Notes: a model not told the origin generated them from the sequence alone. A stretch of 64,000 bases of DNA from Flaccisagitta enflata (GCA_965153355.1 OZ231126.1:27466001-27530000), one strand, 5' to 3'. Shown: positions 27,092 through 45,000, counted from the first letter of the stretch. A program made the numbers and translations.

Positions 27092-30000
27092 TTAGGAAGC
27101 CCACGCTGCCAATTCAGCCATGTCGTCATCATCCTCGGTAGCTAGAAAAAGTATAAAGAATTACAGGTAGAGATCCCTATTGCAAAACTCGTACGCCGGT
27201 GGGCAGGGGTGACAGTCTAGTGGTGTGAGGGGTCTTACAGACATTAAGACAGGTGTAGTGAGGCTAAATCTATTTACAACTTCATCGAACGGACTGAGGG
27301 ACTTGCAGGTGTCAACTTTTTAGTCGCGTGAACGTATGTACTAGTTAAGGTCAATAGGTTTTCGTGATCGTTGGTCGGTCAGTTTTCTTTACTACTCTTC
27401 TGAAAGTCACCTTTCTTCATACCTTTGGCTTTTGATGGTCCTGCTGGAAGGGAATCTGCTGGAACTGATGGTAAGCCGACGTCGTCCGTGACACCAGTCG
27501 GTATTTTAATCAAGTTGAGGTCAAGCTCCTCCTGGAAAATCAATGGGACGTTTGATGATGAAACAGTTAATCATAACTTCGTCAACACGGTCTTCTCTAA
27601 AGAACGCATTTTGATGCACGAACCTGCTCCAGCTCGTCGAGTTCCGCCAGTAATTCATCCTCGTCTACGTCGGCGCCGAATCCTACTGGGTTGGAAATGG
27701 CCTCCGAAATCTCGTTGGCGATATCCTGCTGCTCTTGGATGTCGTCCATAAGGTCGGCGATCTTGTCTACGTCTCTGTTGAAAATGGATGAGAAAATGGA
27801 GGAGAGAAAGGACATGAGCAGTCCTCTGTGTAGAATCGGGAATTCGGGATGGCCGACAACTTACACATTCAGTGTTCACCACAAGTCTCAATTCTACTGA
27901 ATATTATGAGCGAACCCCGTCCATAGAGGCAATGAAGGACATCTGTAATACTTACAAGTCGTTGTGCGCTGCTTTGAGGGACTTAGAGGCCGTATGCATT
28001 GCTTTAAGAACTTCGGTGTTCGTCGACGCATTTTCCAGAGCTTCTCTTTGAAGTTCGATGGTGGAAAGGGTTCCGTCTATTTGACCCAAATTCTTCTCGT
28101 AACGTTTCTTGCGCTTTAAGGCTTGTATGGCAGCTGGAGGAGGAATGAAAGGGTGTCGCCTCACAATTAATCATGTCCCGTCACAATTGATCAATAATTT
28201 AACTAAGTATTTGTATTTTATATTAAGCATTACTATACAAAACGATACATCTGTAGGCGGCTATTTATGGCATGAAGAATCACGCGCTTTCTTATCATTT
28301 CTAATCATTGCATGATCAGTATTGCACCGCTTATATCCATTTAACACGTCGCTTATTTTGGCTTTCTGTGTAGCTTATCATTAGCATATACCTTCTATCC
28401 TTTCCGTTTTAGTTTAGATCGGTTCAGCCTTTGCGGTTTTTAAATGTGTGACACTTATTACTAATAGCACGAGATCCTAACTACACACTGTCCGTCCTAT
28501 ATATACTCACTTTCACCCGTTTCTATTTGCCTCTCTAGATAACAGCTTACTATCTACTAATCAGACGATATAAGAAGAAAGATAAACTCAGAAACATTGA
28601 TAGAATACGCCACTCTCGTGCCACCACGTAAGTTGCCATTTGGGGATAAATCGCAGCTTATATTGGTGCATCGCCAATTTACCCCTTGCGTGGCCCCCCA
28701 TCCTGTAAGTATCTGCTCTCTCCAGTGGATACTGCCCCGCCATTCTCTCCCTTGATTGGTCTTGTGGGTACTGTCAGCAGGATCACTGCTTTGGGTGTCC
28801 TTTTGCAGCTGTCCCAACCCCCTGGCTCTCTCTGCCCAGCTGTTAGGACGATCTTCCTTTTCACCCAGTTTTCGGGTCGAAGGCTGGCGTGAGATCCTTA
28901 CTGGAAGTGTCGTTGTAGTGGCTGGCCCCTCTCGCATGTTCCATAAAAGTTCGGTATCCCACCCCTCCCAACGACAGTCGTGTGCATCTGAGTACCTTTG
29001 AGTCCGTGGCAGCAGATGCCCAGCCCGAGTGTGTAAGTCTGCCGCTGCATTCACGGGTTGCCCAAGTCCCCCTCGATCCTAGGCTCTCATCCCTTTCCCG
29101 CTTCCCCCCGTCTGATCTCCCATCCTGCTGTTAGTGTTACCCCGATGAAAAGAAAGGGCACTATCGCTGAACCGATAGTTCCTGGCAGGCCGAAGTAGCC
29201 GGGATAACCCAACGGATTGTGAGCCCTTTCGCTGGAGTTGCGACCATCCTTTCAAATCTTTCCTTTCCTTACCCCGAGGCGATGAGATTGGCATATTCAG
29301 TCACCATTTAGAACCGCAATTTTAACAATTTTTAGCAAAGAATTGGCTTCGACACTTTTATTCATTATTTAACTGACGTTCACTTTTACGGTCCATTTTA
29401 CCCCTAAATTCACGACATTCCCCCAGTTTTAACACTTCCGTTTTTTTACGAGACATTTTACAAGTGCAATCTAGAGGCAGGGCATCAAAATAAACAAGAT
29501 ACAATGGCAGTTTCAAATGCACTCCCGCTTATCGTCTATATCCATGCAACGCGCACGGCCTTTAGCTTTGTGGTAACAGGAAGAATCGGAGGCGAAGAGT
29601 GCATCATTTCCTTCGGATCCAAGAAGCTCAGCAAATGCCAACAAAAGTGGTCAAATTTCAAGCTGGAAGCCAAAGCCATGGTCTACGCCGTCAAAGCCAA
29701 TGCCCAACTCCTTAGGGATCACGACTACATCATCGAGTCGGATTATCGCCCCCTCCAGGTGTTCCGTGCCGCTATCGCGCAGTTCTGGCAATCTTAAATT
29801 TTATTGCTGCCTTTTATTTCCAGTTATTATCCCCTCCCCCCTTTTTTCCCCGTGTTAGTAACTGGGAAGGGTAAAGCCCAGTCTAACCCTGCTGTGTCTG
29901 CTTAATTTTAACAACGCCTAAAAGACTGCTCAACTTATACTGGAAGTGTCTTTCGTGAATTTCAAGATTTGCAAAAATGCCTGTTAACGGAGAAGAAGTT

Positions 30001-42000: not shown

Positions 42001-45000
42001 TAAATTTGATAACTTTGTTGCATTACAGGTTGTACAGACTTTGAAAAAAAAACAGAGGAAGAGACATTGTATAAAAGTAGTTGTGATTCCGCGGATGCAT
42101 CGTTACAAAACGGTTGATCATTTCATTTTTGTTCATTCCATGGTTATTACAAGAAAAAGAAAAGAGTTTAGAGTAAAATTGAAAATTACGCCTTTTTTTC
42201 ATTTTTTACGTCGCCGTCGCTATAGCAGGAAAATCATGATGACATGGTAGGGGTGGAATAATGTATACTTTTTTTTAGTCACCGTCGTTGCCTTATTTAA
42301 CTAATCATGTTTCTCCTTTTTTTTTCTCCTCCCACTTTACTTTTTCGCCCCCCCCCCCTCGTGAATGTCCGGGTCGGACATCTTAAAAATGAGAAAGTAG
42401 CTGTAGGCGGCTATTTATGGCATGAAGAATCACGCGCTTTCTTATCATTTCTAATCATTGCATGATCAGTATTGCACCGCTTATATCCATTTAACACGTC
42501 GCTTATTTTGGCTTTCTGTGTAGCTTATCATTAGCATATACCTTCTATCCTTTCCGTTTTAGTTTAGATCGGTTCAGCCTTTGCGGTTTTTTGTCCCCGA
42601 CGAACAGTTTTCGTCGGTGACTATGAAGTAGCATTGATACGTAGTCTGTTTGTTTGTTCGTTTGTCGTCGTCGTTTAAAACCTTCTCATATCTTTTGAAC
42701 CAGACCTCAGAAGTTCATGAAACTTTACCAGTGGTATTTTTATGTCAATGGGAGCTTGTGTACCAATTTTCAGAAAAATTCATAAACTTTTACTACCCTT
42801 TGCCTATTATTTTTGTAGTAATATTTTACTAGACTTAGGCGATTTCCATAGGTAGAGGGTAGTAAACCTATGTGAATTTTTTTTTAATTTGGTATACAAG
42901 CACAGGGTATTAAACAAACAACCCCTGCAAAATTTGAATTAAATCTGAGGTCTGGTTCATGAGATATTACCTTATTTATATAGTACTATGTTACTAGGAC
43001 TTAGGCAATTTACATAGGCAAAGGGTAGTAAAGGCATGTGAATTTTTTTTTTAATTTGGTATACTAGTAAAGGATGTCAATTCAACAGCCCCTGCAAAAT
43101 TTGAATTAAATCTGAGGTCTGGTGTATGAGATATTAGCTTTTTTTTCTATTTATTTATTTATTTATGTAGTAATATGTTACTAGGACTTAAGCAATTTAT
43201 AAAATGGATTTGATTGATGAAAATTTTTACTTGTTCATTCATAACATTCTGTTTTTCTATAGGTTTGCCATCATGGATCATAAGGTATGCCATCATGGAT
43301 CTCAAGTTATGCCATCATGGACTTCAAGGTATGCCACCACGGACTTCTAGGTATGCCACCACGGACTAATAGGTATGCCACCATGGACTTCTAGGTATGC
43401 CACCACGGACTTCTAGGTATGCCACCACGGACTTCTAGGTATGCCACCACGGACTGCAAGGTATGCCACCATGGTCTTCAAGGTATGCCACCATGGTCTT
43501 CAAGGTATGCCACCATGGTCTTCAAGGTATGCCGCCATGGACTTCCAGGTATTTGAAATTTTTTTTGAAAAATTTTTTTTAATTTGGTATTCATTTAAAG
43601 TACATCAATTGAACAGCCCCTGCAAAATTCGATTTAAATCTGAAGTCTGGTTTATGAGATATAAACATATTCATGTAGTAATATATTACTGCTGTGAGAG
43701 TGGGTGAATTGTTCATTGAGGAGATTCGCACTTTTCTCATTTACATATTGCGGATGACCATTTATTTGTTCAAAGATTTTTGTGTGATGCATTTATTAGT
43801 TAAATATCATTTTACATTCACTCATGTTGTTGTTCAGCTTTATAGCAATTTCATTATTACGATTTAAATGATAAACAATTACTAATTTAGTTACTTGTAA
43901 TTCCCAACGCTGAACTACTTATAGTATTCAGAAGATTTGCTCTGGTCAAAGTTCACCTTCATGGTAAAAAGGTTTGCGCGCACACACACACACACACACA
44001 CACACACACACACACACACACACACACACACACACACACACACACACACACACACACACACACACACACACACACACACACACACACACACACACACACA
44101 CACACACACACACACACACACACACACACACACACACACACACACACACACACACACACACACGAGCCAGCGAGTGAGCGCGCGTGCACGGATACCAAGG
44201 TGTGCCTTCTTGTTTAGTGTTTAAGGTGTGCCGTCATGGACTCGTAAGGTTTTTTTTGAAAAAAATTTTTTTTTAAATTTTTTTTTTAAAACTTTTTTTT
44301 TTGTAAAAATTTTTTTTGAAATTTTTTTCTTGAAAAAAATTTTTTTTTAAAATCTTTTTTTTGAAAATTTTCTTTGAAAAATTTTTTGAATTTTTTTTTT
44401 TTGATTTTTTTTTTGAAAATTTTTTTGAAATTTCTTTCTTTGTCATTTATCTTCTCAGTCGCACGCACGCATAAACCTTCAAAGTCCCAGTTTAGGACTG
44501 TAGCCTTTGCGGTTTTTTAAATGTGTGACACTTATTACTAATAGCACGAGATCCTAACTACACACTGTCCGTCCTATATATATACTCACTTTCACCCGTT
44601 TCCATTTGCCTCTCTAGATAACAGCTTACTATCTACTAATCAGACGATATAAGAAGAAAGATAAACTCAGAAACATTGATAGAATACGCCACTCTCGTGC
44701 CACCACGTAAGTTGCCATTTGGGGATAAATCGCAGCTTATACATCTACCGAAGCAAAGAAGGAATACTGCGTTGGCGATACAACTGATCATAATGCAACC
44801 CATAAAGGACCTATACGCCGTTTTGGGTATCTCTGCGTCGGCGTCTGAAGACTTTGTGAAGAGAGCCTATCGACGACTGTCACTTCAGTGGCACCTGGAT
44901 CTGGATGTCCGCGGTGGATATAAAACCGTGGCTCAGGAACGATTCAAGGTATGATACGTATCAAGTCACAAGTTATGAGCATATTTTCCCGTAGCATTCC

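Follow-up and report, generated by a model that had tools for sequence, protein, structure and literature searches.

Within a 64,000-nt stretch of one strand of the Flaccisagitta enflata genome (GCA_965153355.1 OZ231126.1:27466001-27530000; hereafter the window, with positions counted from its first letter), we found a Ty3/Gypsy long terminal repeat (LTR) retrotransposon that inserted recently, has intact gag and pol genes and carries an additional open reading frame (ORF) on either side of them. One of these, ORF0, is an RNase H-like fragment upstream of gag; the other, ORF3, occupies the env position downstream of pol and is predicted to contain two exonuclease folds. We lean slightly towards the view that the two are lineage-specific accessory genes of the family to which the element belongs, with the following roles. 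The ORF3 protein, which probably has a sub-genomic or spliced message of its own, would trim single-stranded 3' ends of RNA or DNA, and its dead C-terminal exonuclease fold, like those of Exd1 and Egalitarian, would serve as a module for binding nucleic acid or for pairing; the likeliest substrates of the protein would be the ends of the element's own RNA or complementary DNA (cDNA), or small RNAs that the host directs against the element. ORF0 would be translated from the genomic RNA ahead of gag and would serve a non-catalytic role: it might bind hybrid or reverse transcriptase (RT) as a mimic of RNase H, or it might be an upstream ORF (uORF) that gates gag translation by re-initiation.

Extra genes of LTR retrotransposons show how such elements gain functions beyond gag and pol. 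In the full-text literature searched, a scope outside which Repbase, Dfam and GyDB lie, we saw no RNase H-derived, free-standing ORF reported from upstream of gag, as an earlier note on this DNA had supposed, and no dual-exonuclease ORF3; exonuclease ORFs in LTR elements were met there only in work on bdelloid rotifers and in reviews citing it. Both the pseudo-RNase H upstream of gag and the dual-exonuclease make-up of ORF3 appear to be new, a DEDDy ORF3 as such being already known.

Structure and age of the element

Paired LTRs, a short target-site duplication, a primer-binding site (PBS) and a polypurine tract (PPT), which mark membership in Ty3/Gypsy (Metaviridae), are all present (Table 1). 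The earlier note had drawn a young element of about 14.6 kb at 28252-44741, and both its extent and its age were borne out: the LTRs and the CATC duplication fall at these limits, the length without a later insert nested in the 3' LTR is 14,563 bp, and over 411 bp of alignment, with that insert removed, the two LTRs show a single mismatch and a single 2-bp indel.

The claim that gag and pol are intact likewise stood. Both frames are uninterrupted, and the Pfam matches of pol (RVT_1, E = 2.6e-31; RT_RNaseH_2, 9.3e-25; Integrase_H2C2, 1.6e-15; rve, 1.3e-12; RT_RNaseH also matched) follow the Gypsy order of protease, RT, RNase H, then integrase. The protease was matched weakly by Asp_protease_2 (E = 8e-4) and its DTG motif was seen by eye, as were the D, E, D and D motifs that the RNase H of pol retains. 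The pol frame is -1 relative to gag and is predicted to be reached through a -1 slip at the heptamer GGGAAAC, which we take to be a classical slip site of this kind. No Pfam match was obtained for gag, and the look-alikes of pol in an Atlas search were generic Gypsy pol clusters only. After the integrase core (35100-37088), pol runs on for about 650 codons of Ser/Thr/Pro-rich, low-complexity sequence, in which we found no Pfam match and no chromodomain.

The two extra ORFs lie where the earlier note had put them, one RNase H-like and upstream of gag, the other DEDDy-like and in the env position. Its proposal that both are nuclease folds held for ORF3, for which the predicted structure gives a DEDDy fold; ORF0, which is truncated and has lost a catalytic Asp, is not a nuclease.

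ORF3 and its two exonuclease folds

Both the modelled structure and the conservation of motifs point to an active-type DEDDy 3'-5' exonuclease in the N-terminal domain of ORF3. The AlphaFold2 model of this domain (24-row alignment) had a predicted local distance difference test score (pLDDT) of 90.5 and a predicted template modelling score (pTM) of 0.88, and a Foldseek search with it matched 51 structures of the Protein Data Bank (PDB) at E ≤ 0.001, with Egalitarian, Nibbler, WRN exonuclease, RNase D, Rrp6 and the Klenow exonuclease in the leading places. The best fold matches, extending over nearly whole target chains, were WRN exonuclease (VIA-align Z = 18.0, root mean square deviation 3.2, 192 of 196 residues aligned) and Nibbler, the Mut-7 homologue (Z = 17.4); identity to these is 13-20%, and the ORF3 domain differs from them in an extra N-terminal helix, a long C-terminal helix and its protein context. 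Viral look-alikes of the domain were DNA-polymerase and giant-virus 3'-5' exonucleases. All three Exo motifs are found in ORF3 (ExoI DxE, ExoII D and ExoIII YxxxD), and among the aligned rows that have a residue at the position, the catalytic columns hold D73 in 23/23, E75 in 22/23, D149 in 24/24, Y248 in 20/21 and D252 in 20/20.

Sequence profiles weigh against this assignment. The domain scored 18.2 bits with Pfam DNA_pol_A_exo1 (PF01612), under the curated cut-off of 23.6 (E = 0.037 for the whole of ORF3 and 0.0023 for the domain), and 3 of the 24 family members matched this profile at E ≤ 0.01; a profile of the family found PDB sequences weakly (Mut-7 homologue, E = 0.056; WRN, 0.11), and phmmer with ORF3 against PDB sequences gave 0 matches. 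The exonuclease call thus rests on the predicted fold and on motif conservation.

The homologous sequence of ORF3 passes from one frame into the +1 frame within a short A/T run. When the window was searched by tblastn with P0006, a protein of 1,228 aa and the sole close ORF3 homologue from a word-indexed search, the alignment ran over 38295-41033 and then over 41011-41883. P0006 itself covers both frames in one continuous chain (44% identity over 933 columns, 51% over 306), and both parts are joined in one polypeptide in 8/8 of the homologues that have the C-terminal part. We read ORF3 as one gene of about 1,250 codons, split in this copy by a frameshift that may be a real mutation or an assembly error at a homopolymer. 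Because of it this copy cannot make the full protein, and that ORF3 is broken in the very copy under study speaks against its being a working accessory gene. No indel at the frame change was found in the run contigs among the 12 of 43 indel rows listed.

Beyond the frame change lies a second exonuclease fold. The AlphaFold2 model of the C-terminal 315 residues, taken in their own frame (pLDDT 87.6), matched WRN exonuclease (VIA Z = 16.5), RNase D (16.4), Nibbler (16.2) and Exd1 (15.1), and Foldseek agreed. This fold is predicted to be catalytically dead, because SFRFR replaces DxE and the alignment has no conserved acids at the catalytic positions. The order of domains in ORF3 is accordingly a DEDDy domain, a long helix, a disordered Pro/Ser-rich linker, a helical middle domain and the second exonuclease fold. 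The single DEDDy ORF of the earlier note therefore keeps its DEDDy domain, and proves to be longer, to lie in two frames here and to end in a dead second fold. A tandem-duplication origin of the two folds was considered and set aside, as it found no sequence support (hhalign probability 0.2%).

In Exd1 and Egalitarian, domains with an exonuclease fold but no catalytic activity bind RNA or partners. The C-terminal domain of ORF3 is like Exd1 in combining the same fold with a lack of catalytic acids; unlike both proteins, to which it has no sequence similarity, it shares a chain with an active-type domain, and its binding is only predicted. ORF3 might even be no enzyme in vivo, serving as an RNA-binding adaptor in the manner of Egalitarian that moves or packages the element's RNA, given this dead Exd1-like domain and the high rank among the fold matches (Z = 14.7) of Egalitarian-BicD structures, one of which includes a retrotransposon RNA signal. 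We think this very improbable, since the five DEDDy residues are near-invariant in homologues down to about 23% identity, which is unexpected for a domain that only binds.

How ORF3 came to lie in the element may be reflected in its borders. The 14-mer of the PPT recurs between pol and ORF3 (2 matches in the window against 0.06 expected), and similarity around this internal copy reaches about 40 nt further upstream; a copy of the PPT thus stands on either side of the ORF3 module, and the internal one may be a trace of ORF3 capture or a second plus-strand primer. Flanking tracts that suggest capture, together with the frameshift, would also suit a passenger host gene, useless to the element and decaying. 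The homologues make it hard to credit such a gene. An HMMER scan of the N-terminal 381 residues against 1.84 billion representative proteins yielded only 45 relatives at E ≤ 0.001, of which 31 reached ≤ 1e-10 and 10 reached ≤ 1e-30; none of the 45 carries a protein name. All seven clusters inspected consist of intronless-looking ORFs, from the ENA only, on contigs of 4-5.8 kb, and full-length, uninterrupted homologues at 25-51% identity keep the same catalytic residues and domain order. In addition, a 1,366-nt contig of the public run X1 spans the exonuclease domain with 7 differences. We thus continue to read ORF3 as a gene of the element.

A DEDDy exonuclease ORF3 is known from the bdelloid rotifer LTR retrotransposons Juno and Vesta, in which the gene was inferred to have been acquired more than once (Rodriguez, Kenefick and Arkhipova 2017, PMC5408684), and such ORFs are also covered in reviews (PMC6431247, PMC6338049). 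The rotifer precedent invoked in the earlier note is thus real; the nematode precedent that it added was not found, and in the parts of PMC5408684 available to us the word 'nematode' has 0 occurrences, as have 'ORF0' and 'upstream ORF', with no upstream RNase H-like ORF mentioned in those parts. Judging from the same parts, the present element is like Juno and Vesta in being Gypsy-type and in having, downstream of pol, an extra ORF for an RNase D/WRN-like DEDDy 3'-5' exonuclease. The Juno and Vesta ORF3s show strong homology to cellular DEDDy enzymes and a change of DEDD to DEED, whereas ORF3 here stays below the Pfam cut-off and keeps DEDD-Y. Compared by description only, it further differs from them in its length of about 1,250 aa and its second, dead exonuclease fold, and the host here is marine plankton. 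That a much larger, unrelated-looking DEDDy ORF3 occurs in an abundant marine organism is an argument that retroelements have recruited 3'-end-trimming enzymes repeatedly. Nibbler/Mut-7 and Exd1 act in small-RNA pathways that silence transposons, and with its nearest structural relatives in such pathways, a counter-defence role of ORF3 is testable.

ORF0, an RNase H-like fragment upstream of gag

The relationship of ORF0 to RNase H is clear from Pfam, where it matched RT_RNaseH with E = 1.2e-12 and 48.3 bits against a cut-off of 24.8; by sequence it belongs to the Gypsy-type RNase H (PF17917/PF17919), of whose profile it spans positions 5-86 of 105. Comparison with the pol RNase H of the same element gives identity at 35/86 residues (41%), and at this distance ORF0 is not a recent self-copy. 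The C-terminal fifth of the domain, including the segment with the fourth Asp, is absent. With catalytic positions assigned by aligning ORF0 with the element's own pol and by known motifs, His replaces the first catalytic Asp in 8/10 rows of the family alignment and Tyr in 2/10 (Asp in 0/10), the catalytic Glu is retained in 8/10, and the third position is Asp in 8/10 and Glu in 2/10. ORF0 has, therefore, neither the four carboxylates (D, E, D, D) nor the complete fold of a Gypsy-type RNase H. We take it to be an RNase H-derived, non-catalytic mini-protein; that it is not an enzyme follows from the loss of the first catalytic Asp.

ORF0 has relatives of its own kind. A search of 5.8 billion protein clusters, within a length window of 53-170 aa, gave 11 candidates, nine of them homologues at E ≤ 0.001 (76-105 aa, 57-99% identity), and all nine are free-standing short ORFs from ENA (marine) assemblies. 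The start Met is common to 8/10 rows of the family alignment; in the nearest cluster, 11 of the 15 members listed (of 16) have 97 aa, and one member occurs on 61 contigs. Among 40 candidates in longer proteins, none matched ORF0 at E ≤ 1e-8, the search for these being weak.

These homologues suggest that ORF0 is probably constrained at the protein level. Where ORF0 equals the pol RNase H, 17/34 columns of the family are variable, as against 40/52 elsewhere (Fisher p = 0.019, Mann-Whitney p = 0.006). The replacements themselves had a mean BLOSUM62 score of 0.14, 0.64, 0.35 and 0.05 in four homologues and of -0.33 to -0.20 in four others, compared with -0.43 to -0.53 (standard deviation (SD) 0.25-0.31) in a neutral simulation, and were thus milder than neutral by >1.5 SD in 4/8 diverged homologues. 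Over 29455-29928, a 475-nt contig of run X1 shows 3 differences in the 131-nt spacer behind ORF0 and 1 in ORF0, which by our reading would be synonymous (TCA>TCG). Several observations pull the other way. The remaining 4/8 homologues lie within about 1 SD of neutral, and the eight are not independent of each other; between 11 and 26% of the neutral simulations stay stop-free at the observed divergence; and the database holds called ORFs only, so that decayed copies would be invisible in it, an ascertainment bias.

The last two points would suit a functionless relic, that is, a piece of pol from another Gypsy element brought into the leader by template switching or recombination, carried on by an active family and left open only through its shortness, as would the truncation of ORF0, the loss and variability of its catalytic residues, and a C-terminal end that varies among homologues (76, 80, 86, 97 and 104-105 aa). 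We consider a relic unlikely. It would not readily account for the retention of the start Met and fold-core residues at 57-78% identity, for the significantly lower variability of sites shared with the pol RNase H, or for the mild replacements in half of the homologues, and the weak search of longer proteins brought up no closer pol donor and no fused form.

The leader offers another way of looking at ORF0. Its ATG stands in a good context (ACAATGG) and is preceded by four shorter upstream ORFs, and the 274 nt from the last ORF0 ATG to the gag start (29703-29976) are free of ATG in all frames, where a rough count would expect about 4; together these features fit translation of ORF0 followed by re-initiation at gag. 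They would equally suit an ORF0 that matters only as a uORF or as an RNA element, in the packaging or the control of gag translation, its peptide being without a role. That account strikes us as decidedly improbable, for a pure upstream ORF is not expected to keep RNase H core residues preferentially, and we retain the view of ORF0 as a protein with a non-catalytic function.

Degenerate RNase H domains are retained elsewhere, as the tether (connection) domain of retroviruses and, in plant Tat elements, as the gRNH (Ustyantsev et al. 2015, PMC4408406). By the portions of that paper at hand, ORF0 is like these in being a Gypsy-type RNase H fold that has been kept after losing its DEDD residues. 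The tether and the gRNH are, however, full-length, lie within pol beside RT and have a newly acquired, active RNase H as their partner; ORF0, by contrast, is truncated and stands free upstream of gag, in an element whose own pol RNase H keeps its motifs. Rice Retrosat2 also has an extra ORF0 before the ORF for the retrotransposition enzymes, but in a plant element, and the available text reports this ORF0 as similar to nothing, not as RNase H-derived (PMC3485330). If its conserved role is true, the ORF0 described here would be the third independent case of a degenerate RNase H kept non-catalytically, after the retroviral tether and the Tat gRNH.

ORF0 and ORF3 could also work together, as a two-part counter-defence or replication-control module, one for which no equivalent is described, of an undescribed marine Gypsy clade. 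In such a module ORF0 would be a trans-acting pseudo-RNase H that binds the element's RNA/DNA hybrid or RT, and ORF3 would trim the 3' ends of host PIWI-interacting or small interfering RNAs (piRNA/siRNA) or of the element's cDNA. We regard this as a long shot. The earlier note's idea of a module that edits or shields RNA or cDNA, for example as counter-defence, is conjectural. The relatives of ORF0 are known as proteins only, and the two ORFs were seen together in one element in this copy; a complex prediction of ORF0 with the element's RT-RNase H scored 0.00, which counts neither way.

Distribution of the family and other features of the window

Part of the interval 28252-38251 occurs in 20 of the 24 listed public runs, from 9 studies; these are mostly marine metagenomes, and two are of one organism. 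Contigs of four runs were placed on the sequence; those of run X1 cover all 30 bins, and their 432 pieces fall into classes of likeness (109 at ≥99%, 110 at 95-99% and 213 at 90-95%) that indicate several diverged variants. The element thus appears, from contig placement, to belong to a family that has several diverged variants in the runs of one organism and is also found in marine metagenomes. In two metagenomes, X3 and X7, parts of ORF3 are almost uncovered at ≥90% likeness; this is no sign that ORF3 is absent there, because the runs were chosen with 28252-38251, which excludes ORF3. No RNA run containing the element was among those listed. JGI metagenome contigs gave no match with the ORF3 or the ORF0 alignment, nor did IMG/VR; these blanks are uninformative on distribution because all known relatives come from the ENA.

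Two features of the run contigs were set aside. Joints near 38167-38185 and 41864-41872, examined as splice or recombination sites, have sides of 21-30 nt in (GAC)n-like low-complexity sequence, and a depth peak common to all runs, in the Pro-rich, low-complexity coding sequence at 40025-40501, was disregarded.

In a metatranscriptome, a 507-nt contig that is 93% alike to 28997-29494 stops 10 nt before the start of ORF0 and then has 11 A's; the same library has contigs on gag, on pol and on the spacer between pol and ORF3, with 2-4 differences each. These contigs hint at transcription of the element, carry-over of DNA being possible.

Table 1. Features of the Ty3/Gypsy element and its immediate borders, with positions in the window
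Feature	Position	Strand	Basis or remark
Target-site duplication CATC, 5' copy	28248-28251	+	Sequence read
Ty3/Gypsy LTR retrotransposon	28252-44741	+	LTR pair, target duplication, PBS, PPT, gag, pol
5' LTR, 411 bp, TG...TA, with TATATATA (TATA motif) at 28498	28252-28662	+	Direct-repeat search, alignment
PBS TGGTGCATCGCC, 1 nt past the 5' LTR	28664-28675	+	Complementary to tRNA 3' ...CCA end
ORF0, 97 aa, free-standing RNase H-like fragment, start context ACAATGG	29504-29797	+	Pfam, comparison with pol, homologues
gag, 447 aa	29977-31320	+	No zinc knuckle; Arg/Gly/Asp-rich tail
pol open frame: protease, RT (YLDD), RNase H, integrase, low-complexity tail	31251-37088	+	Translation, Pfam
GGGAAAC heptamer, immediately before the gag stop codon	31311-31317	+	Sequence, frames
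Internal copy of the PPT 14-mer, AAAAATGAGAAAGT, between pol and ORF3	37786-37799	+	Motif count
ORF3, first frame, 977 aa from ATG: DEDDy domain, coiled coil, Pro/Ser-rich linker, helical middle domain	38187-41120	+	
Predicted active-type DEDDy 3'-5' exonuclease domain, motifs FDDEG, GKNVAKD, YAANDA	38490-39287	+	Model, fold matches, conservation
ORF3 frame change; homologous sequence goes on in the +1 frame	41005-41035	+	tblastn with P0006
ORF3, second frame, C-terminal ~315 aa	41011-41958	+	51% identical to P0006 residues 910-1215
Predicted second exonuclease fold of ORF3, SFRFR in place of DxE	41335-41868	+	AlphaFold2 model, fold matches, alignment
PPT AAAAATGAGAAAGTAG, abutting the 3' LTR	42385-42401	+	Sequence read
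3' LTR, first part	42402-42591	+	100% identical to the 5' LTR over 191 nt
Nested later insertion, 1,927 bp including one copy of its 15-bp target duplication	42592-44518	.	Outside the element proper
3' LTR, second part	44519-44741	+	Direct-repeat search, alignment
Target-site duplication CATC, 3' copy, after the 3' LTR	44742-44745	+	Sequence read

The insert nested in the 3' LTR is bounded by a 15-bp duplication, GCCTTTGCGGTTTTT, and having a target duplication of its own it must have arrived after the element. It contains a tandem array of a 22-bp unit (x13), a (CA)91 microsatellite and T-rich simple repeats. An internal unit of 167-170 bp reappears as a 3.2-copy array at 57237-57761, and the insert is on this account a member of a dispersed repeat family; possibly it is a non-autonomous retroposon on the minus strand, with a short A run at its end.

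Elsewhere in the window, a 550-codon open frame at 10012-11664 matched DUF1759 just at the cut-off (E = 1.5e-5), a domain typical of the gag proteins of animal BEL/Pao elements, and this frame is probably the remnant of another LTR element. It is the one feature of the sequence that hints at a metazoan host, which the host of the element would probably be. At 60081-60773, an open frame that contains a SPRY domain (E = 1.9e-18) is probably an exon of a host gene. Three minisatellites were also noted: one of an 80-bp unit (x12.8, 97% identity) at 17264-18288, one of a G-rich 25-bp unit (x122, 3.2 kb) with strong GC skew at 51982-55159, and one of a 17-bp unit (x60) at 63024-63999, which runs past the end of the window.

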